DNA of 64,000 nt from Flavobacteriales bacterium UBA4466. Its GTDB lineage: Bacteria; Bacteroidota; Bacteroidia; Flavobacteriales_D; Sanyastnellaceae. Numbering within the stretch: the stretch's first letter is position 1; every line of letters begins with the position of its first letter. Shown one piece after another: positions 367 to 63,822 of this stretch. The DNA lies in the NCBI GenBank assembly GCA_905182895.1, contig CAJJDD010000002.1:46620-110619 (forward strand). Reading direction: 5' to 3'. The translations under genes were made by a program, and so were the position numbers. Under the pieces are notes generated by a model that did no database searches, was not told the DNA's origin, and saw nothing but the letters and a program-made list of their open reading frames with translations.

Positions 367-422
367 GTTACAAGTTTGAATTGTAAAGGGGAAATAAAAT
401 CAATTCATTAGCTTTGGGGTTC

Positions 423-2733: not shown

Positions 2734-2855
2734 TTCAATTGAGACTGCGAAGAGTTCATTATTTAGACTCAATTTTTTATAGATTTCACTACCAGTATTC
2801 GTTATAATTTCGAGTTATAATTTTGAGTATATTTCTAAAAAAAAAACAAGTCCAG

Positions 2856-14338: not shown

Positions 14339-15139
14339 ATGGAAGAAACCTTAGTCATAGGGTATGGATTTGCCATTGTTATAGGATTAATAATGGGTCT
14401 TTTAGGTGGTGGTGGAAGTATACTCACCGTTCCTGTATTTGTCTATTTATTAGGTTTTGATGAGGTAACTTCTACAGCATATTCACTGTTTGTAATAGGG
14501 GTGACTTCTACAGTAGGTGCTGGGAAAAATGTACTCAGAAAAAATGTAGACTTTAAAAGTGCTCTGGCTTTTGGCTTTCCCTCTTTTATCGCTATTTATT
14601 TTACCAGAAGGTACCTCATTCCTGAAATCCCAGAAGAAATATTCACTTTAGGCACAGAGGTGTTTACCAGAAAAACAATGATGATGTTATTCTTTTCACT
14701 TTTATTAATCGTAGCCGCATTGCCTATGATTAAGAAGAGAAAACTCATATCTTCGGAGGGTTTAGACAAAGTGCTTCCATATACTAAAATGGCTTTTCAA
14801 GGAATAGTTATAGGACTTTTAGCAGGTTTAGTAGGCGCAGGAGGAGGTTTTTTAATTCTGCCAGCTTTGGTGTTGCTTTCTAAATTGCCTATAAAAAAAG
14901 CGATAGGGACTACATTGTTCATAATAGCGTTTAATTCGCTCATAGGTTTTTCTGGTGATGTGCAGAATATAGAAATTGACTGGGAATTCTTACTCCCATT
15001 TACAGCATTTTCTATCTGTGGAATATTGCTTGGAGTATATTTCTCTAAGTTTATAGAAGGACCTAAGTTAAAGCGATTCTTTGGCTTCTTTGTCCTGATA
15101 ATGGCTGCTTACATTATAGTAAAGGAGTTGATTTTATAA
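14339..15139 (+). CDS. Sulfite exporter TauE/SafE family membrane protein
   Basis: Two GGGGS/GAGGGF glycine-rich helix motifs (LLGGGGSILTVPVFVYLLG; LVGAGGGFLILPALV) and about 8 TM segments. Confidence 0.85.
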   Translation: MEETLVIGYGFAIVIGLIMGLLGGGGSILTVPVFVYLLGFDEVTSTAYSLFVIGVTSTVGAGKNVLRKNVDFKSALAFGFPSFIAIYFTRRYLIPEIPEEIFTLGTEVFTRKTMMMLFFSLLLIVAALPMIKKRKLISSEGLDKVLPYTKMAFQGIVIGLLAGLVGAGGGFLILPALVLLSKLPIKKAIGTTLFIIAFNSLIGFSGDVQNIEIDWEFLLPFTAFSICGILLGVYFSKFIEGPKLKRFFGFFVLIMAAYIIVKELIL

Positions 15140-15217
15140 TAAAAGTTTAACATGAGTTTGGTTTTGCGTTGCAACGCTTACAGCAGAACTAAATAACTTT
15201 GTACAAGAAATAAGAAC

Positions 15218-16624: not shown

Positions 16625-16681
16625 TCATCTGTCTTTAGCATTTAGATTAGAAGTAGAATCAGCATTAATAATTTATAAAGA

Positions 16682-16990
16682 ATGGAACAATTAAACGCGC
16701 AGCAGTGGAAGGAGAAGCTAGATGCTTCATCAGATGGGGTCATCGTAGATGTGAGAACTCCAGTAGAATGGGAGGAGGGGATAATTCCGAATGCAGTTTT
16801 AAATAACATACATGAACAACAGGGGTTTATGGATTACGTGGAGTCTTTAGATAAAGACAAGGAGTATTTCATGTACTGCAGAAGTGGCGCTAGAAGCGGG
16901 AATGCTTGTGCCTATATGGAGAGCCAAGGATTCACCAAAACTTATAATTTAGCAGGTGGAATTTTAAATTGGCCTTTTGAGAAAGCTTAG
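16682..16990 (+). CDS. Single-domain rhodanese-like sulfurtransferase
   Basis: 102 aa with active-site loop YCRSGARSG. Confidence 0.85.
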   Translation: MEQLNAQQWKEKLDASSDGVIVDVRTPVEWEEGIIPNAVLNNIHEQQGFMDYVESLDKDKEYFMYCRSGARSGNACAYMESQGFTKTYNLAGGILNWPFEKA

Positions 16991-17272
16991 GAATGAATAT
17001 TCATCTTTGATTGTTGCTAAACTGCTGTGATGATCAGGGTGTAAAAAACACCAAGCTATTCCTAATAGCCTCTCTCACTTTGGATTTAGCTCCTTTCTTT
17101 CCAGAGCCACACATTGTGGAGAAAATAAGATGGACAATAGGCGGAGCAGATGGATGGCTCTAGACTACCGACTAATCTGGTATTAGAATCTCGAATTAAT
17201 AATCCATCATTAACCATTAATAAATAAAAAAGGTAAACTCTTTCACTAATTTTACTCCATCTAATTTCATTT

Positions 17273-18040
17273 ATGAAAGTAACTTTTTTAGGAACAGGAA
17301 CCAGTCAGGGCGTGCCAGTAATCGCGTGTGACTGTGCTGTGTGTAAGTCTGAAGACCCTAAAGATAAGCGACTGAGGGTAAGTGTTCTTGTAGAGGTTGA
17401 TGGACTAAATGTACTTATAGATTCTGGACCAGATTTCAGGCAGCAGATGCTCCGAGAAAACGTCCAAAAGTTAGACGCCATTCTTTTCACTCACGAGCAT
17501 AAAGACCACACCGCGGGATTAGATGATGTAAGAGCCTTCAATTTCAAGTACAAGAAGGATATGGATGTCTATGCACATCCTAGAGTTCAGGAAGCGTTAA
17601 AGATGGAGTTCAGTTACATCTTCGCAGAATTTACATACACCGGAGTTCCTAAAGTTCAGCTACATAATATTTCTAAAGAAAGCGCCTTCACCATAGAATC
17701 TAAAGTAGAAGTTACTCCTATAGAAGTGCTGCATTATAAGCTTCCAGTACTCGGTTTTAGAATTGAGAACTTTACATATATAACAGATGCTAAAACCATT
17801 TCTCCTGAAGAAAAAGACAAGTTCCGAGGGACAGAAGTGTTAGTTTTAAATGCGCTGCACAGAAAAGACCATATCAGTCATTTTAATTTACAGGAGGCAC
17901 TGGACTTAATAGCAGAAATTCAGCCTAAGCAGGCTTACCTTACTCATATTTCTCATTTGTTTGATAAGCATGAGGATATTTTAAGAGACTTACCAGAAAA
18001 TGTTTTTGTAGCGTTTGATGGGTTAAAAATAGAATTATAG
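17273..18040 (+). CDS. MBL-fold metallo-hydrolase (PhnP/YycJ-like)
   Basis: MKVTFLGTGTSQGVPVIACDCAVC ... THEHKDHTAGLDD motifs. Confidence 0.8.
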   Translation: MKVTFLGTGTSQGVPVIACDCAVCKSEDPKDKRLRVSVLVEVDGLNVLIDSGPDFRQQMLRENVQKLDAILFTHEHKDHTAGLDDVRAFNFKYKKDMDVYAHPRVQEALKMEFSYIFAEFTYTGVPKVQLHNISKESAFTIESKVEVTPIEVLHYKLPVLGFRIENFTYITDAKTISPEEKDKFRGTEVLVLNALHRKDHISHFNLQEALDLIAEIQPKQAYLTHISHLFDKHEDILRDLPENVFVAFDGLKIEL

Positions 18041-26292: not shown

Positions 26293-27469
26293 ATGAAAGA
26301 AGTATATATAGTAAGCGCTAAAAGAACTCCAATAGGTAGTTTTATGGGTTCGTTGTCAACAGTATCAGCTACTAAGCTTGGTGCGGCTGCCATTAAAGGA
26401 GCTATAGAGTCTGCGGGAGTTGATACGGCTCAGATTCAAGAAGTTTTTATGGGAAATGTAATGAGTGCTAATCTTGGTCAAGCACCGGCTAGGCAGGCAG
26501 CTATGTTTGCAGGAATTCCTGATAGTGTTCCTTGTACTACTATAAATAAGGTATGTGCTTCTGGAATGAAGGCCATAGCTCTAGGAGCTCAGTCTATAAA
26601 AACAGGAGATAATGACTTAGTAGTAGTCGGTGGAATGGAGAATATGAGTATGGTTCCGCATTATATGGGTGCTAGAACCGGTCAGAAGCTTGGAGATATG
26701 AAGTTAGTAGACGGGATGGTGAAAGACGGTCTAACTGATGTCTACAATAAAACGCACATGGGTGTATGCGCTGAGCTATGCGCCAAAGAGAAAAGTATTT
26801 CTAGAGAAGAACAAGATGCGTTTACTGTAGAGTCATATAATAGATCTGCTGCTGCATGGAGTGGGGGTAAATTTTCTGATGAAATAACTCCAGTAGAGAT
26901 TCCTCAGAGAAGGGGAGACGCTGTTATCTTTTCTGAAGATGAGGAATACAAGAATGTGAAGATGGAAAAAATTCCAACGCTACGTCCTGTATTTGATAAG
27001 GAGGGAACAATAACTGCGGCCAATGCTTCTACATTAAATGATGGAGCTTCTGCACTGATCTTAGCGAGTGCTGAAAAAGTAGCAGAATTGGGGTTAACGC
27101 CTATCGCTAAAATTAGAGCTTGTGCTGATGCGGCTCATGCTCCAGAATGGTTTACTACTGCACCGAGTAAAGCGCTACCTATTGTCTTTAAAAAGAGCAG
27201 GATTAGAGAACAATGATGTAGATTTTTGGGAATTAAATGAAGCTTTCGCTGTAGTAGGAATAGTCAATAATAAAGAGTTAAATATTGACAAAAACAAAGT
27301 AAATGTCAATGGTGGAGCAGTTTCTTTAGGCCATCCATTAGGAAATAGTGGTTCTAGAATTATAGTTACGCTTATAAATGTGTTAAAGCAGAATGGAGGA
27401 AAAATCGGAGCTGCTGGAATCTGTAATGGCGGCGGTGGTGCCAGCGCGATGGTAATAGAAAACGTATAA
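26293..27469 (+). pseudogene. Acetyl-CoA C-acetyltransferase (thiolase), one frameshift
   Basis: The N-terminal piece carries the active-site NKVCASGMKA. The C-terminal piece carries NEAFAVV, NVNGGAVSLGHPLGNSG and CNGGGGASAMVIE. Frames join at GTCTTTAAAAAGAGC (about 27190-27200), a T3/A5 homopolymer context. Confidence 0.85.
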
Positions 27470-32629: not shown

Positions 32630-33944
32630 CTACTCCACCAAAGAAATCCGTACCTTCTTTTTCTTCAATCTAGAATTACTCAACGCCTCAATCAGTGAGA
32701 AAGCTTTGTGAGCAGGAACTGCTACAAAAGAGCTTTCTTGTTTAAGTTCTATAATACCCAGCTCATCTTTCTTAAGTCCACCTTGCTTAAAGAACAGTCC
32801 GGCTATATCACCCTTAGAGATTTTGTCTTTTCTACCCCCAGAAATATGAAGTGTTTCCCACTTGCTTTTTACTATTTCAGTAGTTGAGTCTATTTTAAGT
32901 TCCTCATAATCGGTAATGAAATCTGGCAATTCTTCGTTCTCCCATTTGATAACGATGGCTCTACCGTTTCTATTCATTCTAGCTGTACGCCCGTTTCTGT
33001 GCGTGAACTCATCTGCTTTTTCAGGAATCTCAAAGTGGATAATATAATCCAGTTCAGGTACATCTATTCCTCTAGCCGCTAAGTCAGAAGAGACCAATAT
33101 TCTCTCCGTTCCATTACGGAATTTCATAAGTGCTCTCTCTCTGTCTATTTGTTCTAAACCACCATAAAAACTGGTGTGCCCAATATTTTTTCGTTGTAAA
33201 TCATCACTAACCTCCAGGATAGTATCCTTTAAGCTACAGAAAACGATACCGTTTTTATCTCCCAGATGGCCTAGGAGACGCTCCAGCATAATGAGCTTAT
33301 TCTTCGAGTGAGAAACGACCACTTCGACTTTTAACCGAGCCACACCTTCAGAAAGGTAATCCAGTTTTACAGGATTTTTTATTCTCGTAAAAGCAGGAAT
33401 TTCTAACTTTTGCGTAGCAGAAGTAAGTACCTTCTTTCTAAGCATAGGCAGCGCATCCATAATTTCGCGCATCTCATTTTCGAATCCCGTCTCTAAAGAT
33501 TTATCGAATTCATCTAGGATGAGCGTGTGTACATTTTTAGTGTAAATATTTTCTCTTCTAATATGGTCAGACGACCCTTCCAGGAGTTCCTATAAGTAGA
33601 GCAGGAGAGTGCTTTAGTTCAGCTTTGTCCTTAGAGCCAGAACGTCCACCATAAACAGCATTTATCTTGAATCCGCTCCCTATTTCTCTAGCCACTTGCT
33701 CTATCTGCATAGCTAGTTCTCTAGAAGGAACTAAGATCATAGCTTGAAGCTCATCATCAGTTCTATCTAAATCCTCTAGAAGAGGAAGTAAAAAAGCCAA
33801 GGTTTTCCCTGTTCCTGTAGGAGAGAGGATAATGGTTTCAGGATTCTCTAGAATGACCTCATAGGCCTCTTTTTGCATGGCATTCAGTTCTCTTATTCCG
33901 AGTTTTTTAAGAATGGCATCTAGATTTTTTATTGGAGCAGACAT
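32630..33944 (-). pseudogene. DEAD-box ATP-dependent RNA helicase with DbpA-type C-terminal RNA-binding domain, one frameshift
   Basis: The N-terminal piece has the Q-motif and SPTGTGKT. After a shift near 33565 the sequence continues LILDEFDK..., then VSSDLAARGIDV, HRNGRTAR and the DbpA-like tail (ISGGRKDKISKGDIAGLF). Confidence 0.85.
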
Positions 33945-34025: not shown

Positions 34026-36333
34026 TTATTTAGATTTCAATTTAATTCCAATGAAAATGGTTCTAGGTTGAGAAGGACCATACACGAAATTACTGTCTCT
34101 ATTTTTACCTATATCAAACTGATCTTGGTAGGCATTCAAAATATTCTTCACTCCTGTGTAGAGCTCAATTTTAGAATTTATCTTTTTCAATCCGATAGAA
34201 TACGCGAACTTGAAGCTCACTTCAGAAAAAGAAGCTGAACTAATTATTTCATCCACAGTTTGGTTCGGAGCACCAGCAAAATGCGGGACTAACATACTTC
34301 CGGTATAGATGTAATTCATGTTGGCGTTAATCCGTTTATTCGGAGTAAAGCTTAGCGTAGCAAAACCGTATTCATTGGGAGTTCTCACAAATTCTTTGAT
34401 TCCATCTAAGCCATCTATGTAGGCCACTTCCTCATCAAACTCTGAAGTTTGGATTGTAATTCCAGCCTCTAATTGAGCCTTTCTATTGTAATTGGCTCTT
34501 AGTTCTAGTGTACCTCCAGTAACGGTAGCTCCCTGCCCGTTTTGCTTTTCAAATAATTCACCGAACTCATCTTCTCCAATAGGAGCCAGATAGAAGGCTC
34601 TGTTTAATCTGGTATAAAATCCTTCAAGTGTGAACCCTAGAATGAACTTATCTGTAGGCATATCATAATTTATATGAACCACTAAAACTACTTGATATTT
34701 CTTCTCTCAAATCATCTGCTAAAGATATTCTTGAAATTCCTCCACCAGCAAATGCAATATGTAAGTCCGTATCAAATGCTTGAGGCGCTCTAAAACCTGA
34801 TGAGTAAGAGATTCTAATTTGTGAATTCGCTCTTAAGTTATAAAGTAAAGAGAGTCTTGGACTAGCCACAAAATTATGTATGTCCATTCTCACACCAGAC
34901 AGCAGAGTGATATTCTTTGCTATTTTCCAGTCGCTTTGCAGAAAAGTACCATAATTCCTGGTCGTTTGGTCTATCAAGTAATTGTATGCTGGAATAGCAT
35001 CACTTACTTCATCATAGATAAACTCAGTACCTAGAGTGAATACATTCTCTCCAGTTAGAAACTTGTTTATTTTATGATTCAGCTGCACACCGGTATTAAA
35101 AGTAGTTACATCAGAAGTTCCATAAGGAGGGTTTTCTAAATGTTCGAGTAGCGCTTCATTTTCGTCAGGAATAATTCCTGTGTAGTGATCTCTGACTGTG
35201 GATTGCCATGCAGCGTAGGTAATAAGGCTCGACTTATTCTTATTAAAATTAATCTGATAATCTGCACTTCCCATCCACACGTTATGCGTTCTTTCTTCAG
35301 ACTGAGCTGCTAAGTAAGCAGGTTTTTCGGTCACCATTTCGCCACCGAATCTATATTCGTTTAGGTTACTCAGGCTTACTTCCAGTTTCTGATTGTCGTT
35401 CGGTAAAAAGAACATATTCATCCCTATAGAAGTGTTTTCTATCAACGGTATTTCAGAAAAATCATCTCCATTATGGTCGTAGAACCCTCTATTTCTATTA
35501 TTTATAAAAAGAGAGATGCCAGAATTGGACGACTTAGAAACTAAGGTAGCGTTGGCTAGAGTTTGATTATCTCCAGTCTGCTTGTTGATATTCTGGTAGT
35601 TGTAATTCAACTCATAGCTGTTCTTTCTTGGAGTTTTGGTAATTACATTTACAGTTCCGCCTATAGCGCTAGAACCATATAATGAAGAACCTCCACCACG
35701 CACCACTTCTATGCGCTCTATCATATTTACAGGAAGCTGTTCCATACCGTAAAGCCCTGTAAGCGGACTGAAAATAGGTCTTCCGTTAATCAATATTTGT
35801 GAATATCCACCCGCTAGTCCATTCATTCTTAACTGAGTGTAGTTACAGGTTTGACAGTCGTTTTCTACCCTAAGTCCCGGTTGAAACTTCAGTCCCTCAG
35901 ACAGGTTACATGCCTGCACATTATCTAGCGTTTTGCTGCTCAGCACATTGACTATCACCGGTGAGTCTGTTTGTCTTTTATATGTCTTAGTTCCAGAGAT
36001 AACTATTTCATCTAAATCCATAGTTTGTTCAGTAAGGGAGAACTCTATATTTAAATTGGGAGAGTCGCTGCTCAAGGTGATTTCTTGAGAAACCAGTTCA
36101 TAGCCTATATAGCTTGCTGTGATTGTATATGTTCCATAGGGTATGTCATGCAGATGCGCTTTACCACTAGAGGTAGTAACAGAAGAAACGCTTAGTTCTT
36201 CTATGCTGAGCGTAGCAAATGCAACAGGTTCAGACTCCTTTTTTACACTAGCATGGATGTCTCCTGTTTGACAGAAAGCTATAGGTGAAATTAAGATGAA
36301 AACATACAGGAGTATGTTTTTTAGGGAAATCAT
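34026..36333 (-). pseudogene. TonB-dependent outer-membrane receptor with carboxypeptidase-regulatory-like N-domain, one frameshift
   Basis: Signal peptide, CarbopepD_reg-like segment (GTYTITASYIGYE), a plug (VVRGGGSSLYGSSAIGGTVNVITK) and a barrel ending in ...IFIGIKLKSK. The pieces overlap at about 34663-34682. Confidence 0.85.
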
Positions 36334-46882: not shown

Positions 46883-46958
46883 GGTTAGGTTTACAATAAG
46901 TTGTGTTTTCTGATTTATCTTTTACAGACGCTTTCTTTAATTTAATTTCCAAATCAAA

Positions 46959-47934: not shown

Positions 47935-49134
47935 ATGAGTACTAAAACCTATGTTTCTGATTTACTTAATCGTCTTCCTGAGTCGGCTACTTTGGCCATG
48001 GCAAGAATGAGTAGAGAATTAAAAGAATCTGGAAAAGATGTTAATATCTTTGAGTTTAGGTGAGCCTGATTTTAATGCTCCAGACTTCGTGAAAGAGGCG
48101 TGCAAGCAGGCTGTAGATGATAATTACTCTCATTATCCACCAGTAAATGGGTATGGAGAATTAAGAGAGGCTATTTGCCATAAGTTTAAAAGAGACAATG
48201 ACTTAGTGTATACACCAGACCAAATAGTGGTCAGTACAGGTGCTAAGCAGACTATAAGTAATATCGTTTATGCATTAGTGAATCCAGGAGATGAGGTGTT
48301 GTTGCCAGCTCCGTTTTGGGTGAGTTATGCTGCTATGGTTCAATTGGCAGGAGGAGTTCCAGTAATTATTCCTACCCAAATAGAAAATGATTTTAAAATT
48401 ACACCATCACAATTAGAAGCGGCGATTACGCCATAAAACAAAGCAATGATTATCTACATCAGCCTTGTAATCCATCAGGTTCTGTTTACAGTAAAGATGA
48501 GTTAACAGCTTTAGCAGAAGTGATCAAGTCTAAGCCAGACTTTTTTGTGGTATCTGATGAGATATATGAACATATTAATTATACAGGAGAGCATGCTAGT
48601 TTAGGAACTATTCCTGGCATTTTTGACCAAGTAATTACTGTGAACGGTGTGAGTAAAGCTTTCGCTATGACCGGATATAGGATAGGCTATTTAGGAGCGC
48701 CAACATGGATAGCTAAGGCTTGTTCTAAAATGCAAGGCCAGGTTACCTCTGCTCCATCTGGTGTGAGTCAAATGGCTGCTAAAGCTGCAGTTTTGGCAGA
48801 TCCGTCTTCGGTTTCTTACATGAAAGATGCTTTTCTTAAAAGAAGAGATATGATGCTAGAGAAATTAGGTGAAATACCGGGGTTAAAGTTAAACGTACCT
48901 GAGGGAGCTTTTTATATCTTTCCTAACTGTATGGAATTACTCGGAACTGTAACTGATGATGGGAAGGAGATTAACACGTCTTCTGATCTATGCATGTATC
49001 TTTTACAAGCAGAGAATGTAGCTCTAGTAGCAGGAGATGCTTTCGGTGCGGCTGAATGTTTTAGACTTTCATACGCAGCTAGTGAAGAGATGCTAGTAGA
49101 GGCTAGCAGAAGGTCCGTCTCTAGCATTTGGTAA
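47935..49134 (+). pseudogene. Class I/II pyridoxal-phosphate aminotransferase (aspartate/aromatic type), disrupted by two frameshifts and one in-frame stop
   Basis: ATG 47935 (MSTKTYVSDLLNRLPESATLAMARMSRELKESGKDV) shifts near 48045 into ORF 48038..48436. An in-frame TAA lies at 48434-48436 (ITP-stop-NKAMII). A shift near 48450 follows (QPCNPSGSVYSKDEL). The PLP lysine block SKAFAMTGYRIGY is in ORF 48520..49134. Confidence 0.85.
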
Positions 49135-52788: not shown

Positions 52789-53586
52789 CTACTCCAAGCC
52801 TAGTTTCAACATCTTTATTAAGTGGTGTGAATCTTTTAGCTCTAGAAATGGATACTCAATCCTGCTCAGAAACAGGCCATTCGGAAGGGCTGGCTGCTTG
52901 TCTTTCAGTTGTTTTTTTCGCTTCAAAATCTCCTCAAATTCTTCCAAGGTCATTTTACCGCTTCCCACCTGTAATAAGAAGAAAACACAGTAGCGAACCA
53001 TACCTCTGAGGAATCCGATTACTGGTGATGGTAAACCGCAGTCGTCCCTTATCTTCATTGATGAATAATTCAGAATTCGTTACTCTGCATAACGTGTTTT
53101 TATATACATCGGGCTGTTTGCAAAGCGGTCTGAAATCTTTCGTTTCTAAGATAAGCCCCGCAGCCTTTTTCATGAGGTCGAAGTCCAATGTTAAATCCTC
53201 ATAGAACGAGCTGTAGCGAATAAGAATAGGATCCTTCTTTAAATGAATAAAATAGTCATAGGTACGAGATACAGCGCTATGTCTAGCATGTTGCTTATTG
53301 TCTACTTCAAATATTTCAAAAACAGCAATCGTATCAGGTAAATTCTTGTTTAGGCGGAACATTAAATCAAATGAAGGGTCTTCATCCAATTCTATTTGAA
53401 CCACATACTGACTAGAGTGAACACCTGCATCAGTTCTTCCACAGCCGTTTGCAGTCACTTCTTTCTTAAATACTTTAGAGAGAACATCCTCTATAACCTT
53501 CCTGTACTGTGTTTCGAGGTTTAGTTTGTCTCTGCCAACCTCTGTATGGGGTGCCGTCAAATCCTAGGTGTATGAAATAGCGCATC
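52789..53586 (-). pseudogene. truA: tRNA pseudouridine(38-40) synthase TruA, two frame breaks
   Basis: ATG at 53586 gives MRYFIHLGFDGTPYRGWQRQ. ORF 52955..53560 carries the catalytic GCGRTDAGVHS. ORF 52789..53058 carries FLRGMVRYCV...PNGLFLSRIEY. Confidence 0.85.
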
Positions 53587-53815
53587 TGTAAATTATAACA
53601 AGAGTAGGCTTAATTTTTATGAATTAGCATTAAATGGCTAAACTAATTTCAAATTATCTCTCTTTTTTCAAGGTCTTTATATACCTATCAGTTTGTGCAG
53701 TTAAACTCGGTCCTTAAGCTCATTTCAGCCAATAATATTTGGTTAAAATGAGGTTAGAAATTATGATTACCATCCAGTACAAATTTTATGAGGCACTGTT
53801 TCTATTACTATCAGC

Positions 53816-55975
53816 TTACGGTCCCGTGATAGGGTTGGCGCTCACATTAAAAGTAGGTAAGAAATTCTGGTACAATTCAGAATTAGTGATGACATCAACT
53901 GAAACAATGTTGACTAAATCATTTGGGATCTCTGCTACAGCCTCAATTGTGAATACTTTGGTGTCGTCCCAGTTTTCTGAATCCCAGTATAACATTGTTG
54001 GTGTTATTGAAACGCTGGATGCAGAGCTTATTAAGTTCACAGTCAATCCAATATCTGTTCCCTGTAGGCTTATAATGGGATCTGTTAATGTGACTGAAAC
54101 TTCATAGGTCTCTCCAATCTGAGTGAAGTTTATATTCTTAATGTCAAAGTTGATTATTTCTGTTACATCAGAATCATATTCACAAGACCCATCATCTGTA
54201 TTAGCTAAAGCATTATAGTTTGTAGCTGTAGAATCTATACAGCCTAATAAAGTTGATGTTGAACATGGAGTACCGAAAGCCCCAAGGAAGCCACCTAAGT
54301 CACTTACGTTTACATTACCGTCACCAGAAAAATCTCCAGGACACACAGAGGCTACACCAGCATCAAAAGCCTCTTGGTTGTCTGACGCTATGTCTGGGCA
54401 CTCAAATACACAAGTCCCATCATCTATCGTGACTGCCGAATCGTAGTTCGTTGCTGAGGGATAAGTACAGCCACTATTACAGGAAATAAATTCACATGAC
54501 CCATCATCACACGTTGCAACAGAATCGTAGTTACATGCCGTTGAATCTATGCACCCATTAATTAGTTGACATGAATCATCGTCATACAGCGCATCTGGGT
54601 CGAAGTTACATGCCATTGGATCCATACAACCACAAGCACTATTGTTGGCGCCGCCTTCTACATAAAAGGTTCCAATAAGAACGTCCCCGGCATTCGAATC
54701 ATCCCAGAAAAGGTCTAACAAAAAGCCTTCTGAAGATTCTACAAAAACACCTCCATAAACATTCTCCCATATCCAGCCGTCCCCATAGCTATCTGAGAGT
54801 TCGAGAGTATAAGTACCCTCAGACAATGAAATAGTTTGTCCTATTAAGTAATATCCTTCTAATTCTGGATCGCTTCCATTAACATCAAACTGGAGCTGGT
54901 CAGGAAACTCTCCATCTGCGACGATAAGACTACCATCTTCAACGTACATCAAATTAGCTATTAGATTCCCTGCTTCATCATAAATATTTGCAGATGCCTC
55001 GGCAACATAATAGTCAAACTCGTAATTGAATGACACCAACGATGGTCCAGCACATGAGCAATAATAACATGATCCATCATCGCATCCTGCGGTCGGATCA
55101 AAATTACATGCTATAGAATCAGCACAACCTGGGTAGGTGCATAATCCATCATCACAGATTGCAGCTGAATCATAGTTACACGCTGTTGAATCAGTACATC
55201 CATCAGGCAATACACATGATCCATCATCGCAACCTGCGGCTGGGTCATAGTTACACGCTGTTAAATCAGTGCATCCATCAGGCAATACACATGATCCATC
55301 ATCGCAACCTGCGGCTGGGTCATAGTTACACGCTGTTAAATCAGTGCATCCTGGATAGGTGCATAACCCATCATCACAAGTTGCTGCTGAATCATAGTTA
55401 CACGCTGTTAAATCAGTGCATCCATCAGGCAATACACATGATCCATCATCGCAACCTGCGAATAAATTGTAGTTGCATGCTGCAACATTGTTACACCCAG
55501 GATAGGTGCAAAAGCCATTATCTATAGTTGCTTGTGCATTGAAGTTACACGCAGTCATATCAGTACATCCTAAATTAGGGTCACAGTTTTCAGTTGTGTA
55601 AGGATTAAAATTTGGATCTAAACTTTGCCACATGCCACACTGGTTGATTACACCCAAATTTTCAACCACCCCTAGATTAATCACGTCCCCGTTATTATCT
55701 ACAGATCCAGTTGGCTCATTTACAACCGCACCCGAATCATGGATCAAAAAATACCCCTCATTATCAATGAAACCATCATTATAAATAAATCCAAAATTTT
55801 CAATACTCGCATAATTCTCTATGACTCCTGATAAGTTGATGATACTACCATCAGGTTGAATCTCAATTATCGCAGTTCCATAAGCTGATATATTCCCAAT
55901 GTTTTCAATGGTTCCGGTGACAACTATAGATGCTTCATTAACAAGTGTTGCATTCGTTGTGCAAGGTGTAATCAA
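53816..55975 (-). CDS. Block 3 of the Cys-rich modular secreted-protein locus
   Basis: It has no signal peptide or ATG of its own; the track start is a TTG right after a stop cluster. Order of elements: xGxIxN beta-helix-like repeats, QCGMW, seven 23-25-aa C-T-D-x-T-A-C-N-Y-D...C-D-D-G-S-C units, a SYGDGW module, four more Cys units, a dockerin-like CPGDFSGDGNVNVSDLGGFLGAFGT, and a Cys-free tail. There is no T9SS CTD. Confidence 0.65.
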   Translation of the reverse strand: MITPCTTNATLVNEASIVVTGTIENIGNISAYGTAIIEIQPDGSIINLSGVIENYASIENFGFIYNDGFIDNEGYFLIHDSGAVVNEPTGSVDNNGDVINLGVVENLGVINQCGMWQSLDPNFNPYTTENCDPNLGCTDMTACNFNAQATIDNGFCTYPGCNNVAACNYNLFAGCDDGSCVLPDGCTDLTACNYDSAATCDDGLCTYPGCTDLTACNYDPAAGCDDGSCVLPDGCTDLTACNYDPAAGCDDGSCVLPDGCTDSTACNYDSAAICDDGLCTYPGCADSIACNFDPTAGCDDGSCYYCSCAGPSLVSFNYEFDYYVAEASANIYDEAGNLIANLMYVEDGSLIVADGEFPDQLQFDVNGSDPELEGYYLIGQTISLSEGTYTLELSDSYGDGWIWENVYGGVFVESSEGFLLDLFWDDSNAGDVLIGTFYVEGGANNSACGCMDPMACNFDPDALYDDDSCQLINGCIDSTACNYDSVATCDDGSCEFISCNSGCTYPSATNYDSAVTIDDGTCVFECPDIASDNQEAFDAGVASVCPGDFSGDGNVNVSDLGGFLGAFGTPCSTSTLLGCIDSTATNYNALANTDDGSCEYDSDVTEIINFDIKNINFTQIGETYEVSVTLTDPIISLQGTDIGLTVNLISSASSVSITPTMLYWDSENWDDTKVFTIEAVAEIPNDLVNIVSVDVITNSELYQNFLPTFNVSANPITGP
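55058..55570. repeat. Array of seven 69-75-bp coding repeats (CxDxxACNYDxxAxCDDGxC units)
   Basis: Hand-counted from aa 136-305 of the block 3 translation. Confidence 0.9.
55201..55350. repeat. Two base-for-base identical 75-bp tandem units
   Basis: 55201-55275 equals 55276-55350 (CATCAGGCAATACACATGATCC...AATCAGTGCATC), read directly. Confidence 0.95.
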
Positions 55976-55996
55976 TGTCTAAACCATCCCTTATAA

Positions 55997-56839
55997 TCAC
56001 ATTTGATCCAATTGAACAGTAGCATCGTTCCCCGGACCGGGAAATCCATTATCCCAGTTACCTTCAGTGTGCCAGTCTGAACTTATGACACCGGTAAAAA
56101 TGGTTCCGCCAGTTCCTCCTGAACAACTTGGGTTTGATGCACAATCTGGGTCGTCGCAGTCTATCAGTCCATCACCTTCATTATCTATACCGTCTGCACA
56201 ATCGCATTCGTAAAGGGTACAATCAACGCATTCAGAGGCAGATACACAATCTGAATCGTTACAGTCTATCTGTCCATCACCATCATTGTCTATACCGTCT
56301 GCACAATCGCATTCGTAAGCAATGCAATCGACACATTCAGGGGCAGATGCACAATCTGGATCGTCACAGTCTATTAGTCCATCACCTTCATTATCTATAC
56401 CGTCTGCACAATCACATTCGTAAAGGGTACAATCAATTTCATTCTGGCAAGCGGCAGTTTCCAAAGGATTTCCATTTGGATCTGAACCATTCCAAAAACC
56501 GCATTGGTTGATGAGCCCACTATTTTCAACAGCCCCATCATTAAAAACCTCCCCACTGTTATCTATAAATCCTGTTGGCTCATTTACAACCGCACCCGAA
56601 TCATGGATCAAAAAATACCCCTCATTATCAATGAAACCATCATTATAAATAAATCCATCATTATAAATACTCGCATAATTAGAAATGACTCCTGATAAGT
56701 TGATGATACTACCACTTGGTTGAATCTCAATTAGCGCAGTTCCATAAGCTGATATATTCCCAATGTTTTCAATGGTTCCGGTGACAACTATAGATGCTTC
56801 ATTAACAAGTGTTGCTTTCGTTGTGCAAGGTGTAATCAA
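55997..56839 (-). CDS. Block 2 of the Cys-rich modular locus
   Basis: TTG-initiated ORF in the same frame as blocks 1 and 3. Order of elements: xGxIxN repeats, QCGFW, three 35-aa CxxYECDCADGIDN(D/E)GDGxIDCxDxxC units, then SGGTGGTIFTGVISSDWHTEGNWDNGFPGPGNDATV and stop. Confidence 0.6.
   Translation of the reverse strand: MITPCTTKATLVNEASIVVTGTIENIGNISAYGTALIEIQPSGSIINLSGVISNYASIYNDGFIYNDGFIDNEGYFLIHDSGAVVNEPTGFIDNSGEVFNDGAVENSGLINQCGFWNGSDPNGNPLETAACQNEIDCTLYECDCADGIDNEGDGLIDCDDPDCASAPECVDCIAYECDCADGIDNDGDGQIDCNDSDCVSASECVDCTLYECDCADGIDNEGDGLIDCDDPDCASNPSCSGGTGGTIFTGVISSDWHTEGNWDNGFPGPGNDATVQLDQM
56117..56431. repeat. Three 105-bp coding repeats (35-aa Asp/Cys-rich calcium-binding-like units); a second set lies at 56981..57295
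   Basis: The period of 105 was measured on CGTCTGCACA landmarks (56191, 56296, 56401). Confidence 0.9.
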
Positions 56840-56860
56840 TGTCTAAACCATCCCTTATAA

Positions 56861-58573
56861 TCACATTTGATCCAATTGAACAGTAGCATCGTTCCCCGGA
56901 CCGGGAAATCCATTATCCCAGTTACCTTCAGTGTGCCAGTCTGAACTTATGACACCGGTAAAAATGGTTCCGCCAGTTCCTCCTGAACAACTTGGGTTTG
57001 ATGCACAATCTGGGTCGTCGCAGTCTATCAGTCCATCACCCTCATTATCTATACCGTCTGCACAATCGCATTCGTAAAGGGTACAATCAACGCATTCAGA
57101 GGCAGATACACAATCTGAATCGTTACAGTCTATCTGTCCATCACCATCATTGTCTATACCGTCTGCACAATCGCATTCGTAAGCAATGCAATCGACACAT
57201 TCAGGGGCAGATGCACAATTTGAATCGTCACAGTCTATCTGTCCATCACCATCATTGTCTATACCGTCTGCACAATCACATTCGTAAAGAATACAATCCT
57301 CGCCATCTTCACCTGTGCAAGATCCCCAAGATCCCCAAGAACCATTTGCGCAGGTTCTCGTTTGCGTTCCGCTATTATTGTTTCCGCAGGCTATTGTTTC
57401 TTGAGAGCCATTTGTGCAAACATCTGGGTCATTACAACTTCCCCAAGCTCCGCTTGTGCAGGTTTGAGTTCCGTTGTTGTTTAAACCGCAAGCTTGTGTT
57501 GCGCCTTCTGTACAATCAGAATTTTCATCAATTTCACTATCACAGTCATCATCAATATCGTTGTTTGGTATTTCGATCGCTCCCGGATATATAGTATCGT
57601 CACTGTCGTTGCAATCTAAATCTGAGTAGTATCCATCTCCCAATCATGTTCCATCCTGATTCTAAGTCTCTACTTAAACACCATTTATCTATGGTATTCT
57701 CAACACAATCACCAATTGAATATATGCAAGACCCATCGTCTACTTCTTGCAGTCGAATCGTAGTTCGTAGCAGCTGAATAGGTACAACCAGCGCAAGAAG
57801 TAAACTCACAAGAACTGTCGTCGATTGTTGCAGTGGCATCGTAGTTACATGCCGTAGTATCTGTACAACCTGGCCCAGCACATGGTGTGTAGAGGTTAAA
57901 TATTGGATCGCCTCCACCCCAGAAGCCGCATTGGTTGATGGTCCCGCTCGTTCTCGATGGTCCCGTCGTTATTGATGCTCCCGCCGTGTTGTCGATGGTC
58001 CCGTGTTGTTGATTTCCCGAGTGTTGACATCCCGCCGTTATTGATGCTCCCGCCGTTGTTGTTGTTGATATTCCCGAAGTTGTTGAAGATGCCCCCGTAG
58101 TTGACGATGGTCCCGAAGTTGTTGAAGATGCCCCCGTTGTTGAAGATGCCCCCGTTGTTGTCGATGGTCCCGTCGTTGTCGATGGTCCCGTCGTTATAGA
58201 TGGTCCCGCCGTCGTTGAAGATGGTCCCGCTCGTTGATGATGGTCCCGCCGTCGTTGTAGATGGTCCCGTCAGTTGGTAGATGGCCCGCCGTTCTCGATG
58301 GTCCCGTAGTTGTTGATATTCCCGTAGTTGTAGATGGTCCCGCTGTGAGATTTCGATTGATGATTCCCGTCGTTGAAGATGTCCCATCCGTATGATAACA
58401 GTGGATCCAGAGGGAATAGTGGCGTCATTGCCCATGGCAGGAAGCCCATTGTCCCAGTTTCCAGCCTCAGCCCAATCGTAACTTATGACACCCGTAAAGG
58501 TGGTTTGAGAGAGGGCTTCTGTCGTAAATAAGATTGTAAAAATCAATAATATAAATGCAAATAATTTTTTCAT
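56861..58573 (-). pseudogene. Block 1 of the Cys-rich modular locus; the only block with a start and signal peptide, and heavily frame-scrambled
   Basis: ATG at 58573 (MKKLFAFILLIFTILFTTEALSQ), then TTFTGVISYDWAEAGNWDNGLPAMGNDATIPSGSTVII. GTIxNxG heptad repeats follow and need several frame changes. Next come QCGFWGGGDP, two CTDTTACNYD-type units, a MopE-like DGYYSDLDCNDSDDTIYPGAIEIPNNDIDDDCD, a WGSWGSC segment and three 35-aa units. Pieces in the ORF track: 57896..58594, 57600..57917 and 56861..57643. Confidence 0.6.
57931..58390. repeat. GC-rich ~21-nt repeats (GATGGTCCCGxCGTTGTTGAx on the plus strand; GTIxNxG on the minus strand)
   Basis: Read directly. More than 15 units contain GATGGTCCCG or GATGCCCCCG. 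Confidence 0.85.
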
Positions 58574-58642
58574 TACGGGATTGTTTGAGAGCAACTATTA
58601 AGTTACAATTTAAATAAGTCTAATCTATTAGATTTCATTCAA

Positions 58643-58650
58643 CAAAAATA
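58643..58650 (-). promoter_or_regulatory. Candidate -7 box (TAttTTTG) for the modular locus
   Basis: The reverse complement of CAAAAATA is TATTTTTG, about 70 nt upstream of ATG 58573. Confidence 0.25.
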
Positions 58651-58781
58651 TATGGAATGTTTTCCACGCTCAAATGCAAATACGGAATAGGCCCCGATTA
58701 GTTGCGTTTACTCTAGTATAACTTCTTGAAACTTTAAATTTCATATTTCTGTCTTTTCTTTTTAGTAACCTCGATTATATC

Positions 58782-61700
58782 TTAATCAATCAATATCTCA
58801 TCTACAAAAATCCATGGAGTTTCTCCTGCGCTTATATGCCAGCTTGGCATAGGACCCCAATTAACTGCCTTTACTCTTACATAGCGCGCTAGAGTGAATA
58901 TTTCTGCTCCTGCTAATCCATGTTCCACATCTTCTTCTAGTGGCTCTAAAGAGAATGTAATGCTGGAGTATGGCTCCCAGATTTCTTTGTCTGCAGAAGT
59001 TTCTATTACTACTGCGCTTGGTGGGAAAATCCAAGGCTTGGTATCTTTTAAGTAGCTGAGGTGAATAGATGATATGGCTGTTTTAGCTCCCAAATCCACT
59101 ATGGCGTTTAGGTCTTCTCCCCAGTACCCTTGGAAATCACCGCTTTTATAATCAGGCCTAGATCTTATTCCATCTATCAGCGCCATGTCTCCACCACCAG
59201 TGTATTGATTGTTATACTCAGAGAAAAGTTCTATGGCCCAGTCGGCTTTTCTTTTTATAACTATAGCTTTCACTATTCCGCTAGCAGAGGCCACTTGTTT
59301 TTGGCTCCTAGCTTCTATCGTCATGGATTCATTTATGTTAAATGGCTCGGTATATAATTCCCAATCAGTCGTATCTATTACTGCAGTAGTTCTATACTCT
59401 GTCCGTGCTCCTTTTTCAGAAGAGATGGTCACGGTAGTTTCATCTAGAAAACTTCTCTCAACAGTAATGGTGGGAGCCATGGTAATATCAAAACCATCTA
59501 TTTTAGAGGTAGGGCGGTTTGTTTGGTGCCGTTCCCCATGATTGTATTTGGGACTAGGGGACAGTTCAAATGACAAGATGCTCCGCCTTCCATAATCATA
59601 TCATGAGTGATGTATGAGTTTGGCCAGTCGGCTCCGTTATACCTCACGCTAGAGATATACCTTCTTTTCTCTTTAGGGGCTATTTCTTCTAGTTCCATCT
59701 CCAGCATAGAAGTAGAGATAGAAAACGTATTTCCGTTTTCTAGATGAATGGCAGCACTGTCTATAATAGGCGCGCTCAGGGCATATTCCCTGCTTCCTGG
59801 AGTTACAGAGTATATTCCCATAGCAGAGAGTACGTACCAGCTGCTCATCTGGCCGCAGTCTTCATTTCCACTGAGACCATCGGGAGTAGGAGAGTAAAGG
59901 TCCCTTAAAATTTCTTGAGTTCTGTACTGCGTTTTCCATGGCTGTCCAGAGTAATTATATAAGTAGGCCATGTGATGGCTAGGCTCATTTCCATGGGCGT
60001 ATTGGCCTATTAAACCGGTAATATCTGGCTGGTGTCTTCCTGCTAAATCCATAGGGGCTGTAAAGAGTTTATCTAGCAGTTCATTGAATCTTTTCTCGCC
60101 TCCTACATGGGTTATTAATCCATCCACATCTTGAGGAACGAAGAAGCTGTACTGGTAAGAATTGGCTTCTGTAAAATTGAAATTTACCTCAGAAGGATCG
60201 AACGGTGAAATCCAATCTCCATTTCTCTTGGCTCTGCAGTAACCAATTTCTCCATCTATAGTATTTCTATAATTCTGTGCACTTCTGTAATAGGTCTCTG
60301 CCACTTCCATGTTTCCTAGCGCTTCAGCAAAAATGGCTATGCACCAGTCGTTATAGGCATACTCTAAGTTCTTAGACACAGATTCTCCTTCATCTTCCAT
60401 AGAGATATATCCTTTCTCTCTAAAATGCTCTTTTCCGAATTCTACTGCTTCTGAGGTTTTTACCATGGCTTCCAACGCCTTCTGCGTATCGAAATCAGTA
60501 ATCCCCTTCATGTATGCGTCTACTATTACAGGCACAGCATTATACCCTATCATGCAGTGCGTGTAATTTCCTGCGAGCTCCCACATTGGGAGGTCTCCTC
60601 CCTGATCGTACATCTTCAGAAATGAGTGTATGAAATCTTTAGTTTTATCTCTCTGCGTAATGGTGTAAAGTGGGTGCGAAGCTCTAAATGTATCCCATAG
60701 AGAAAATACCGTGTACTGCTCATGGTCAGTGGCAGAGTGTGTTTCCATATCCACGCCTCTGTATCTTCCGTCTACATCTGTAAACGTATTCGGTACGGTG
60801 TAGGAGTGATAAAGTGCCGTGTAGAAATTTTGTAGTATGGCAGTGTCCTGCGTTGCAATATCTATTTTGCTCAATTCCTCTAACCACGCTTTTTTAGCCG
60901 CTGTTTTATATCTCCCAAAATCCCAATGCGGAGCTTCTGTTTTTAAGTTTTGCAACAAACTTTCAATATCTACTGGTGAAAGTTTTTCTTTTACATTAAA
61001 TCAGCTCCTTGATTAAAGACTAGCGGGAACACAGGAACCATCTCTTGGTAATTTCTGATTTCTCCATTATCCAGTTCCTCATAAACGATTTCGAAGGTCT
61101 GATCTGTATAGGTAAATGGTCTGGAAAACTCTGCTACGAAGTAAACATGCTGTTCTTCTGCCCATTCTTTAGAAACTCTCATTCCGGCTACAGTAGAATC
61201 ATTCAACGGATAAAATTGATATTCAATTAGCGGGTCTCTGTGTGCTAAATCTATAAATACAGTGAAACTATCAGCTTGATTAGTTAAGTGGTATTTGTGA
61301 ATTCCCACTCTGGTGGTAGTCGTTAATTCGGTTTCTATATTCTGGTCATCCAGAAAAACAGAGTAGTATCCAGGAGAGGCTTTTTCAGTTTCTTTTCGGA
61401 ATGCACTTCTGTACCTCTCCCCCCAGTTTTTTCCTTGATGCACAGCGCTATTTGTAGGCGACAGAAGAACATCACCATAATCAGAGATTCCAGTTCCCTG
61501 CAGGTGTGTGTGACTGAATCCGTATATCAAAGAATCTGAATCATGGTATCCACCGCAGCCATCCCATCCCGTAAGCCGCGTGTCTGGACTTAACTGCACC
61601 ATCCCGAATGGCATAGTAGCTCCTGGGTAAGTATGGCCGTGACCTCCAGTTCCTACGAATGGATTTACGAAGTCACATACGGTAGGTTCTTCTAGAAGTT

Positions 61701-61794
61701 CTGCTGCTGGTGTGGTTTTCTTATTCGCAGTGCACGAAGCCAGAGCTAAGAGCGCTAGTATAGTTAGTAATGAAAGTGAGGTGAGAAATTTCAT
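58782..61794 (-). pseudogene. GH92 family alpha-mannosidase with C-terminal carbohydrate-binding-type extension, two frame breaks
   Basis: Signal/lipoprotein (LLALASC). GH92 N-domain GTGGHGHTYPGATMPFGMVQLSPDT. Catalytic part with HGNEPSHHMAYLYNYSGQPWKTQ. The join at 60958-60991 reads ADLNVKEKLSPVDIESLLQNL if one A is added to TTAATG. The third piece, 58782..59576, is a beta-sandwich-like tail. Confidence 0.85.
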
Positions 61795-62410: not shown

Positions 62411-63822
62411 ATGAGGTCAATTTTACTACTTGTACTGTTTCTAGGAATGGCGAATTTCTCTTCAGCACAAGAATCTGCAGATGCTTTAAGCGCTTTCGTG
62501 AATAGTGAAGAACTGAAAAATGCCAGTGTAGGGTTTTCTCTACTAGATCCATCTGGAAAAGAAATCCAGTCCTATAATTCCGAAAAAAGTTTGGCGCCAG
62601 CTTCTACGGTAAAGCTTTTAACGAGCATCACAGCTTTAGAGGTTTTGGGGTATGACCATAAGTTCGTAACCACCTTAACTATACAAGGGACGGTTATGGA
62701 AGGAAAGCTAATAGGGAATGTTATTGTGAAAAGTGGAGGAGATCCTACGTTAGGAGCATCCGATTTTAAAAATCATTATGGAGACTTTGTGGGTGAATGG
62801 GTAGAAGCTATAAAAGCAGAAGGCATTACAGAAATAGACGGTAGGATTTTAATTGATGATGGCGCTTTAGAAGGAGACAGAAATGCGGGATCTACTGCAC
62901 TGAATGATGTAGGAAATTATTATGGTGCGGGAGCGCCAGGGTTTTCGTTTATGGATAATGAGTTTACCGTATTCTTCAATACTGCCGGAGTAGGAGCGGC
63001 TAGTGTAGGTAGTAAAGACAGAGCCAGCACTTCCTGATTCCGTAGAGTTAGTTAATGAGGTAAAAGTAGGAAGTAAAAGTGGAGACAATGTGATTATCTA
63101 TTCACTTGATGGAGGAAATCAAGTTTTCTTTAAGGGGGAGCTGCCGGCCAATAAAAAGGGTTTTCAAGTTAGAGGATCTATTCCCGATGTGACAGGTTTT
63201 GCTCAGGCTTATCTTCAAAGGGCTATAGAAAATTCTGGAATATCTATCACGGCAGTAGAAAAGAAGGGCCCGTTGTTTATGCATTCCAAAGAACTAGTGC
63301 GAACTAAATCTCCTGCGCTCATAGAGATACTTAAAGTACTCAATAAGAAAAGCGTAAACAGCTATGCAGATGTCCTGCTAAAACACATAGGGAAAGCCAG
63401 TGGAAGAGCAGCTACATTTGAAGGGGGCTCAGAAGCGGTGAAGGCTTATTGGAAGGAGAAAGGGTTGGATACCAGTGGGATTTATATAGAAGACGGAAGC
63501 GGTCTTTCTAGAAAAAACAATATCACGGCTAAATTTATGACCGGTTTATTGCAAAGTCAGGTAGAGGATGAGCAGGTAAATAAGATGATGAATGAAGCTT
63601 CTTTGTCCTTCTTCTGTGAAGTCCATGTGGGGCGAGGCTTTCAGAGGTCAGATTCAGGCTAAGAGCGGATATATAGGGAGAGTAATGGCATACGCTGGTT
63701 ATATCATTAGGGATGGAGAAAAATATCCTTTCTACCTTACCGTAAATAATTTTTCGGGTAGTGATTCTAAAATGAGAAAGTTAATGGGAGCGGCGTTAAG
63801 AGGAGTGAGACTTGAACTTTAG
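62411..63822 (+). pseudogene. dacB: D-alanyl-D-alanine carboxypeptidase/endopeptidase (PBP4, peptidase S13), two frame breaks
   Basis: Signal peptide, SxxK (PASTVKLLTS), SGLSRKNNITA and KSGYIGRVMAYAGYI (KTG-like). The three ORF pieces 62411..63037, 63090..63662 and 63592..63822 are in three different frames. Confidence 0.85.

Follow-up and report, generated by a model that had tools for sequence, protein, structure and literature searches.

Tandem and partly identical copies of surface-protein sequence are found in the Neisseria pilE/pilS system, the Borrelia vlsE/vls cassettes and the Mycoplasma MgPa repeats, in which the cassettes are known to be truncated and unexpressed in every strain and to recombine into a separate expression site. 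Two ORFs that lie in different frames and encode one conserved protein are a feature of programmed ribosomal frameshifting, as in the -1 events of dnaX and IS elements and the +1 event of prfB. Compensated frameshift pairs, in which the lengths of two neighbouring indels add up to a multiple of three and an out-of-frame stretch with stops is enclosed, occur in bacterial pseudogenes. Marine Flavobacteriales encode modular secreted proteins with Cys-rich CNYD-type repeats and MopE-like CDCxDGxDNDGDG motifs (PF11617). Artefactual, gene-fragmenting frameshifts have also been documented in assemblies whose consensus is error-prone or a collapsed mosaic. In such draft, long-read, single-cell and metagenome assemblies, genes are frameshifted or prematurely stopped although intact in close relatives, many genes are hit on one contig, and the apparent frameshifts vanish in better assemblies (PMC12007338; PMC9262707; PMC8445201).

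The window, by which we mean the whole stretch of 64,000 nucleotides that was analysed, contains a gene for a modular surface protein that resembles those of marine Flavobacteriales in its signal peptide and repeats (Table 1). The protein is composed of a signal peptide, GxIxN domains, which are probably beta-solenoid-like, Cys-rich repeats (three of 35 aa, CDCADGIDNxGDGxIDC) and numerous CNYD repeats. It differs from the known modular proteins in the linker-bearing GxIxN domain, which has neither a Pfam match (hmmscan of the full L007 orthologue, E <= 1) nor a close homologue in representative genomes, where the only hits of a protein-guided scan were distant relatives with CNYD repeats in other Flavobacteriales MAGs, with no GxIxN-domain orthologue among them. 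For the window fragment P0001 a match to PF11617 (MopE-like putative metal-binding motif) is precomputed, and at E <= 1 the hmmscan of the complete L007 orthologue yielded no family. Apart from the fragment of the window itself, protein homology searches retrieved nothing but MopE-like repeat proteins; since the known orthologues are missing from the results, these searches are uninformative on truncated alleles. Each of the two tandem units carries the Cys-rich CDCADGIDNxGDG repeat three times, together with the N-terminal portion of the GxIxN domain. The sequence from ~55720 to 56420 is 99-100% identical to the copy located 864 nt further. In conspecific assemblies the gene is a single ORF of 793, 1082 or 1129 aa, and the number of modules is hypervariable. 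Upstream of the units, in block 0, GxIxN motifs occur in each of the three frames and the reading frame changes about ten times altogether, and an allele of the block 0 type is intact in L004 (327-aa).

Table 1. Coordinates of the features discussed, in window positions.
Feature	Position	Strand	Remarks
Secreted modular surface-protein gene, whole	53816..58594	-	at least 5 ORFs in the window
Block 0, domain copy and following segment	57600..58400	-	GC-rich; GC 0.54 in the 57900-58400 core
Two tandem 864-nt units	55590..57298	-	~100% identical over roughly 700 nt; divergent toward 55600-55720
Linker copy, block 1/2 junction	56837..56869	-	identical to the block 2/3 copy; exact match, three-frame translation
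Linker copy, block 2/3 junction	55973..56005	-	exact match, three-frame translation
Out-of-frame stretch, copy 1/2	56808..56877	-	matches the copy 2/3 stretch; gaps at 56878/56877 (1 nt) and 56808/56807 (2 nt); alignment
Out-of-frame stretch, copy 2/3	55944..56013	-	~70 nt, from the 1-nt gap to the 2-nt gap; MAFFT, translation
Private patch	55941..55953	-	GAA(T)GCAACACT--TGTT, orthologues GAAGGT(G/A)ATATTGAGATT; alignment
TonB-dependent receptor patch	34675..34726	-	gene-breaking; intact in L021, 772 aa
Aminotransferase patch	48404..48461	+	20 private differences and 3 indel columns in 55 nt; elsewhere intact, 404 aa
GH92 patch	59528..59582	-	five 1-nt insertions and 8 substitutions in 55 nt; elsewhere intact, 1002 aa

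The first-pass annotation of this DNA had reported two identical linkers carrying TGA, TAA and TAG, and an exact-match search bears this out: the 33-mer CAAATGTGATTATAAGGGATGGTTTAGACATTG has two exact copies on the minus strand, with 0 mismatches and 0 chance matches expected. Both read CAA ATG TGA TTA TAA GGG ATG GTT TAG ACA TTG, and the positions assigned to them at that time, 55979-55999 and 56843-56863, are the exact TGA...TAG bounds. Three-frame translation agrees with two further statements of the annotation, namely that the stops are in frame with both the upstream ORF (...GNDATVQLDQM*) and the downstream ORF (TLITPCTT...), and that the domain continues in the neighbouring frame, in which the linker region reads SIGSNVIIRDGLDIDYTLHNE; the N-terminal copy of the domain reads TFTGVISYDWAEAGNWDNGLPAMGNDATIPSGSTVIIR. 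The identity of the linkers is nothing specific to them, because they sit in the 864-nt tandem duplication, within the part (~55720 to 56420) whose two copies are 99-100% identical. Three stops in an off-frame stretch of this length are not unusual either: among the 21-codon windows read in the off-frames of an intact orthologue, 34% contain at least three stops and 4% include every one of the three kinds.

A comparison with orthologous loci, which had been proposed as a check, shows that the linker region is open in all seven orthologous copies, derived from four conspecific assemblies that are independent of one another (L001, an NCBI MAG; L002 and L003, from ENA, including TARA; L007, from JGI), although these represent other strains and so do not prove what the window strain carries. 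The copies read GNDATIQIESNVIISDGLDIDYTLHNEGDIEINE or GNDAIIPIGSNVIISNGLDIDYNLFNEGNIEINE at the site. The surface-protein gene is 93-94% identical to its orthologues, and the tandem period in L007 is 867 nt (864 + 3). A MAFFT alignment of the window with the seven copies reveals that 1 nt is absent between TTC and AATTGG (56014/56013), where the window has TTC-AATTGG in place of TTCCAATTGG or TTCAAATTGA, and that 2 nt are absent about 70 nt downstream, at ~55944/55943 within a private patch; the other unit has the equivalent gaps (Table 1). The annotation had instead placed a missing T in GGATC-AAATG, near 56003-56010, and an extra C in TACACC-TTG, near 55963-55972. Both motifs turned out to be conserved; the first gap lies at 56014/56013, and the second event is the absence of two bases. 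The net change of -3 (-1 and -2) accounts for the frame shared by the flanking ORFs. Shifted by one base, the stretch in copy 2/3 encodes IGSNVIIRDGLDIDYTLHNE.

The linker is therefore no designed element but a segment of about 70 nt, out of register, from the N-terminal part of the repeated GxIxN domain. Deletion of the same base in the intact copy 2 of L007 yields NDAIIQLDQM*LYRMV*TLIT, which is nearly the linker peptide. Both junctions in the window consensus read TTCAATTGG, with a spacing ahead of AATGAAGC of 28 nt and not 30 nt. The counterpart of the private patch, at 56805-56817, has an A at 56816 where the patch has a T at 55952, and this is the sole difference between the copies across the linker region, that is, the out-of-frame stretch and the patch. 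The patch sequence, GCAACACTTGTT, is no simple mixture of the two known copy types.

Programmed recoding would require the ribosome to shift twice, by -1 at the first site and by +1 some 23 codons later, and thereby to produce the full-length protein in spite of the stops. The net change of -3, by which the flanking ORFs remain in frame with each other, and the conservation of the intervening peptide in the shifted frame are consistent with such a mechanism, and, as in dnaX, IS elements and prfB, two ORFs of the window lie in different frames and correspond to one conserved protein. However, neither shift site has an X XXY YYZ heptamer, a homopolymer or a simple-sequence repeat, and the domain is encoded in a single frame in all orthologues, so that there is no conserved recoding signal. 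No slippery heptamer or known +1 site was found in 55900-56060 on the minus strand, no stable local RNA structure at the linker (MFE z-score -0.43), and no Rfam element in 53500-59000 at E <= 1 (0 matches). The window thus lacks the slippery sequence, the stimulatory structure and the conserved shift of the known systems, and recoding is exceedingly improbable. To our knowledge, no arrangement of two opposite frameshifts 23 codons apart has been described. A phase-variable contingency locus was ruled out as well: no run of at least 4 bases and no simple-sequence repeat is present at CTGTTC/AATTGG or AACACT/TGTTAA, the two gap sites.

The annotation had also raised, as its last option, a deliberate translational insulation between an expressed gene and silent cassettes. 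In such a system stop-rich linkers would set the gene apart from cassettes that lack a promoter and serve surface variation through gene conversion. The tandem, near-identical modules at a hypervariable surface-protein locus recall the pilS, vls and MgPa cassettes, and TGA, TAA and TAG all fall inside 8 codons. By contrast with pilS and vls, however, the presumed cassettes follow one another as in-frame domains of a single uninterrupted ORF in L002, L003 and L007, and no linker lies between them. Removing a single base from an intact copy is enough to produce the stops, their density is ordinary for off-frame sequence at this locus, and the upstream gene that should be expressed is itself broken about ten times. 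The open orthologues contradict insulation, to which we assign only a minimal probability.

The disruption of reading frames extends along the entire contig. At least seven other conserved genes are split on it (truA, GH92, PBP4, thiolase, TonB-dependent receptor, DEAD helicase and aminotransferase), with GH92 and PBP4/S13 each in three pieces in the window. All of them except the thiolase gene, which lies outside the compared region and is covered by no relative, are intact in the comparison assemblies L001-L006 or L021, and the flanks of the broken genes are about 98% identical in nucleotide sequence to these assemblies. Within the regions compared (29.4-38.2 kb and 40.2-64 kb), 201 differences over 17,968 compared bases are private to the window; 133 of the 201 are confined to 12 patches of 5-89 nt, which also hold most of the indels. 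Another frame-breaking patch is located at 53015, and further patches lie at 60994 and 63007.

The substitutions inside and outside the patches differ in character. Those in patches are distributed over codon positions as 22/21/28, with synonymous to nonsynonymous changes of 25:46 and transitions to transversions of 45:68 (0.66), although alignment ambiguity in indel-rich patches may inflate their apparent randomness. The isolated private substitutions, with values of 9/9/40, 38:20 and 43:22 (about 2), look evolutionary, whereas those in patches appear unselected. Natural differences between L003 and L004 show a transition to transversion count of 60:27. The indels lie mostly outside homopolymers and cluster with substitutions, and single-base insertions outnumber deletions about 3:1. 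This rules out a pure homopolymer-error model of the nanopore or 454 type, and the insertion-rich patches of 5-89 nt are unlike the classic nanopore homopolymer-deletion profile. Likewise, the patches were rejected as divergent alleles imported by recombination, because they break frames and have no codon-position or transition bias.

A further common trait of the two units is found at 14 sites that separate the copy-1 and copy-2 types in other assemblies. Both window copies share the same mosaic at these sites, 11221111122211, and the linker indels are located at or beside its switch points. A shared alternating mosaic is the expected output of a pooled-read consensus.

We estimate a probability of about 0.8 that the linker frameshifts are a consensus or assembly artefact present in both repeat units. 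The technical origin of the indels, as opposed to real mutations of the strain, is the most likely reading of the observed indel positions, the frame that is open in conspecifics, the mosaic common to both copies and the patches that break genes throughout the contig. TGA, TAA and TAG are a wrong-frame reading of the AT-rich coding sequence of the domain, and the two indels and the patch would be errors of the kind scattered along the entire contig. The likeness of the copies would reflect read pooling across the two units, or the double placement of a single collapsed repeat consensus, as is assumed here given that the 864-nt units are nearly identical; the T/A difference inside the patch excludes a literal copy-and-paste of the units. 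As in the published artefacts, many genes are hit on one contig, the consensus is a mosaic of repeat or allele types, and the frameshifts are absent from other assemblies (PMC12007338; PMC9262707; PMC8445201). The first preference of the annotation, a consensus error or repeat collapse reproduced in both copies, is favoured by the open orthologues and the contig-wide patches, with paired frameshifts indeed present in each copy, but its details of the indels do not hold.

Alternatively, and in line with the second option of the annotation, the strain may carry a real double frameshift (-1, -2) in a surface gene that was already dead, the unit having then been copied or homogenised by unequal crossing-over or gene conversion. 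The ~100% identity of the copies over roughly 700 nt, indels included, fits a recent duplication or gene conversion, and the locus naturally varies in its number of modules among conspecific assemblies. The about ten additional frame switches upstream in the gene suggest that selection may already be lost, and the copies do differ at one base inside the patch. However, many conserved single-copy genes are broken on the same contig and intact in every conspecific assembly, a degree of breakage that is implausible for a free-living strain ~98% identical to its relatives. A real compensated pair in a pseudogene would stand alone in an intact genome, whereas the window pair is one of many patches with error-like statistics, namely an unselected and transversion-rich spectrum. 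Four copy-type switches within ~130 nt, the same in both copies, fit a pooled consensus better than conversion tracts. No independent assembly contains the frameshifted allele: the ENA and NCBI loci are all open, in JGI metagenome contigs every match to a DNA pattern that allowed both forms, open and frameshifted, was open, and the same pattern gave 0 matches in GTDB representative genomes. Real frameshifts at this site are accordingly unlikely, and that they would represent concerted evolution continuing in a pseudogene, with a dead module homogenised between tandem copies at a strain-variable surface locus, is slightly less likely still. Were the frameshifts real, they would show only a dead gene copy in this strain.

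With the artefact as the preferred reading, the linker is most likely not a real feature and holds no new biology. It illustrates that a duplicated stop pattern of designed appearance arises automatically from a repeated coding segment that is one base off, and that repeat collapse lends such an out-of-register pattern a false look of conservation. The contig is to be flagged as being of low consensus quality, so that other oddities of the window, among them split genes and short ORFs, carry correspondingly little weight. The underlying biology is modest: an abundant, Flavobacteriales-like marine bacterium has a modular surface-protein locus that varies from strain to strain. At this locus the repeats are flanked by unique sequence, at 57300-57600 on the upstream side and 55400-55570 on the downstream side.

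On the minus strand, 58594–53816 translates as one large secreted modular protein, in which a signal peptide precedes a GxIxN-repeat domain (opening TFTGVISxDW...GNWDNG), 35-aa Cys-rich CDCADGIDNxGDGxIDC repeats, the second and third copies of the GxIxN domain, many CNYD-type Cys repeats and a C-terminal region. The gene is split into at least five ORFs in the window, of which 56861–57643 encodes the 260-aa fragment P0001. An exact string search found the 33-nt linker CAAATGTGATTATAAGGGATGGTTTAGACATTG twice in the window, where none is expected by chance. The frame 5' of both copies translates as ...GNWDNGFPGPGNDATVQLDQM* and continues 3' as TLITPCTT(N/K)ATLVNEASIVVTGTIEN..., while the neighbouring frame reads SIGSNVIIRDGLDIDYTLHNE across the linker, corresponding to TFTGVISYDWAEAGNWDNGLPAMGNDATIPSGSTVIIR in the N-terminal copy of the domain. 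The first-pass annotation described the linker correctly, as two exact copies with stops in the flanking frame and a domain-like neighbouring frame, and its coordinates, checked against sequence and translation, delimit the stretch from TGA to TAG exactly. The linkers are identical because both sit inside an 864-nt tandem duplication, in which ~55720–56420 is 99–100% identical to the sequence lying 864 nt beyond it, with divergence only toward 55600–55720; the linker is no more conserved between the copies than its flanks.

Orthologous loci were reached through the neighbouring intact TrkH: independent metagenomes and MAGs contain at least 22 contigs that encode it identically. These contigs share ~98% identity with the window in the flanks and 93–94% in the surface-protein gene, and come from strains other than that of the window. 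A further contig, L007, was found by a DNA pattern accepting open and frameshifted linker forms alike. The gene is one ORF in L002, L003 and L007, and the orthologues read GNDATIQIESNVIISDGLDIDYTLHNEGDIEINEVSLV or GNDAIIPIGSNVIISNGLDIDYNLFNEGNIEINEASIV across the linker; the comparison of related loci proposed earlier thus shows the domain open at this point. The blocks of L007 are spaced by 867 nt (864 + 3), and window positions 56969–53804 are colinear with L007 464–3635. A word-indexed protein search recovered P0001 and none of the 786–1082 aa orthologues known by other routes; since it misses known orthologues, its silence is no evidence against relatives of this repetitive protein. The proposal that the linker insulates an expressed gene from silent cassettes is contradicted, because the "cassettes" are elsewhere successive domains of one ORF, and we regard it as extremely improbable.

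Aligned with seven orthologous copies, both copies from the window show a 1-nt gap (TTC-AATTGG versus TTCCAATTGG or TTCAAATTGA) and a 2-nt gap (GAA(T/A)GCAACACT--TGTT versus GAAGGT(G/A)ATATTGAGATT). Indels had been postulated at GGATC-AAATG and TACACC-TTG; both sites are conserved in all aligned copies, and the indels lie elsewhere. Removal of the same single base from the intact copy 2 of L007 yields NDAIIQLDQM*LYRMV*TLIT..., a near match to the window peptide. In the intact orthologue, off-frame stop densities are 0.056 and 0.132 per codon, and 34% of 21-codon off-frame windows contain at least three stops (all three kinds in 4%). The stop cluster is, therefore, at chance level for out-of-frame reading of this AT-rich gene. 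Recoding across the shift sites has a negligible probability: the orthologues are all in one frame, hence without a conserved recoding signal; neither site carries a slippery heptamer, a homopolymer of four or more bases or a simple-sequence repeat; RNA structure at the linker region is unremarkable (z = -0.43), and Rfam gave no match at the surface-protein locus.

Positions of linker copies, alignment gaps, broken genes, patches and orthologous ORFs
Feature	Sequence	Positions	Strand	Remark
Linker copy, block 2/3 junction	window	55973-56005	minus	exact match
Linker copy, block 1/2 junction	window	56837-56869	minus	exact match
1-nt gap	window	56014/56013 and 56878/56877	minus	alignment
2-nt gap	window	~55944/55943 and ~56808/56807	minus	alignment; within private-substitution patch
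Thiolase	window	26293-27469		frameshift-split; beyond region covered by comparison assemblies
DEAD-box helicase	window	32630-33944		frameshift-split; intact in conspecific assemblies
TonB-dependent receptor	window	34026-36333		frameshift-split; intact in conspecific assemblies
Aminotransferase	window	48038-49134		frameshift-split; intact in conspecific assemblies
truA	window	52789-53560		frameshift-split; intact in conspecific assemblies
GH92	window	58782-61794		three pieces; intact in conspecific assemblies
PBP4/S13	window	62411-63822		three pieces; intact in conspecific assemblies
Patch	window	48404-48458		20 private differences
Patch	window	59528-59582		five 1-nt insertions
Surface-protein ORF	L003 (TARA)	14777-17158		793 aa; one domain block
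Surface-protein ORF	L002 (ENA)	14623-18012		at least 1129 aa; two domain blocks; N gap in scaffold
Surface-protein ORF	L007 (JGI contig)	375-3623		1082 aa; two domain blocks
GC-rich allele	L004	12116-13099		327 aa

Many other reading frames on the contig are broken, and the entire window should be handled as low consensus quality. Over 17,968 window bases compared with four to six assemblies, 201 differences are private to the window; 133 of these, and most indels, fall within 12 patches of 5–89 nt, at whose positions the other assemblies agree with each other. A like pattern is seen against the conspecific locus L021 at 34675–34726 and 34865. Patch substitutions are distributed 22/21/28 over codon positions 1/2/3 (syn:nonsyn 25:46, ts:tv 45:68), isolated private substitutions 9/9/40 (38:20, 43:22), and natural differences between L003 and L004 have a ts:tv of 60:27. 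Substitutions inside the patches do not resemble evolutionary change. The indels lie mostly outside homopolymers, comprise more single-base insertions than deletions and cluster with substitutions, which is the textbook profile of no single sequencing platform. The linker patch (~70 nt, roughly ten substitutions, two indels) is built in the same way as the other patches. An intergenic patch at 46915–46949 carries 18 private differences, 13 of them indel columns, against six other assemblies.

In the other assemblies 14 sites distinguish copy-1 from copy-2 types; at these sites the two copies of the window share one alternating mosaic, 11221111122211, with indels at or adjoining the switch points, as would be expected of a consensus of pooled reads from both tandem units. 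We consider the linker to be a consensus or assembly artefact duplicated through repeat handling, with a probability of about 0.8. Open orthologues and error-like patches back the compensating frameshifts and consensus error that the first-pass annotation had favoured, its indel positions needing correction. Indels that fragment genes, and apparent frameshifts that arise where a consensus is mosaic or collapsed, are described in the literature as artefacts of assembly (PMC12007338, PMC9262707 and PMC8445201). A real strain-specific double frameshift, a dead allele later spread by gene conversion, is unlikely, as it demands either numerous real inactivations of conserved genes on this one contig or a linker patch that is the single real one amid many error-like patches.

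The core of block 0, the N-terminal GC-rich domain copy, has a GC content of 0.54 (57900–58400) versus 0.385 for the window. On the minus strand of 57600–58400 the frame changes about ten times, with perfect GxIxN motifs kept in whichever frame is read, and GTIxNxG repeats are legible in all three frames across block 0. Indels occur here about once per 70 nt, far more densely than in the flanks, and the frame switches point to recent indels on which selection has not acted. L004 carries an intact allele of this type. The surface-protein locus is hypervariable among conspecific assemblies (327, 793, 1082 and at least 1129 aa); that of the window (53816–58594), in which the domain starts three times, looks as if an L004-type N-terminus had been joined to an L007-type gene.

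Antisense to the Cys-rich repeats, long His/Arg/Leu-rich ORFs occur at 55159–55527(+), 56128–56511(+) and 56992–57594(+), and again in the orthologous loci; they are by-products of repeat composition, not genes. Between truA and the surface-protein gene, 53617–53804 spans 187 nt in the window versus ~1.13 kb in all six conspecific assemblies (L001–L006), where it holds an alpha/beta-hydrolase gene of 285–313 aa that left no tblastn trace anywhere in the window. Either a genuine deletion in this strain or a mis-join could account for the missing segment.
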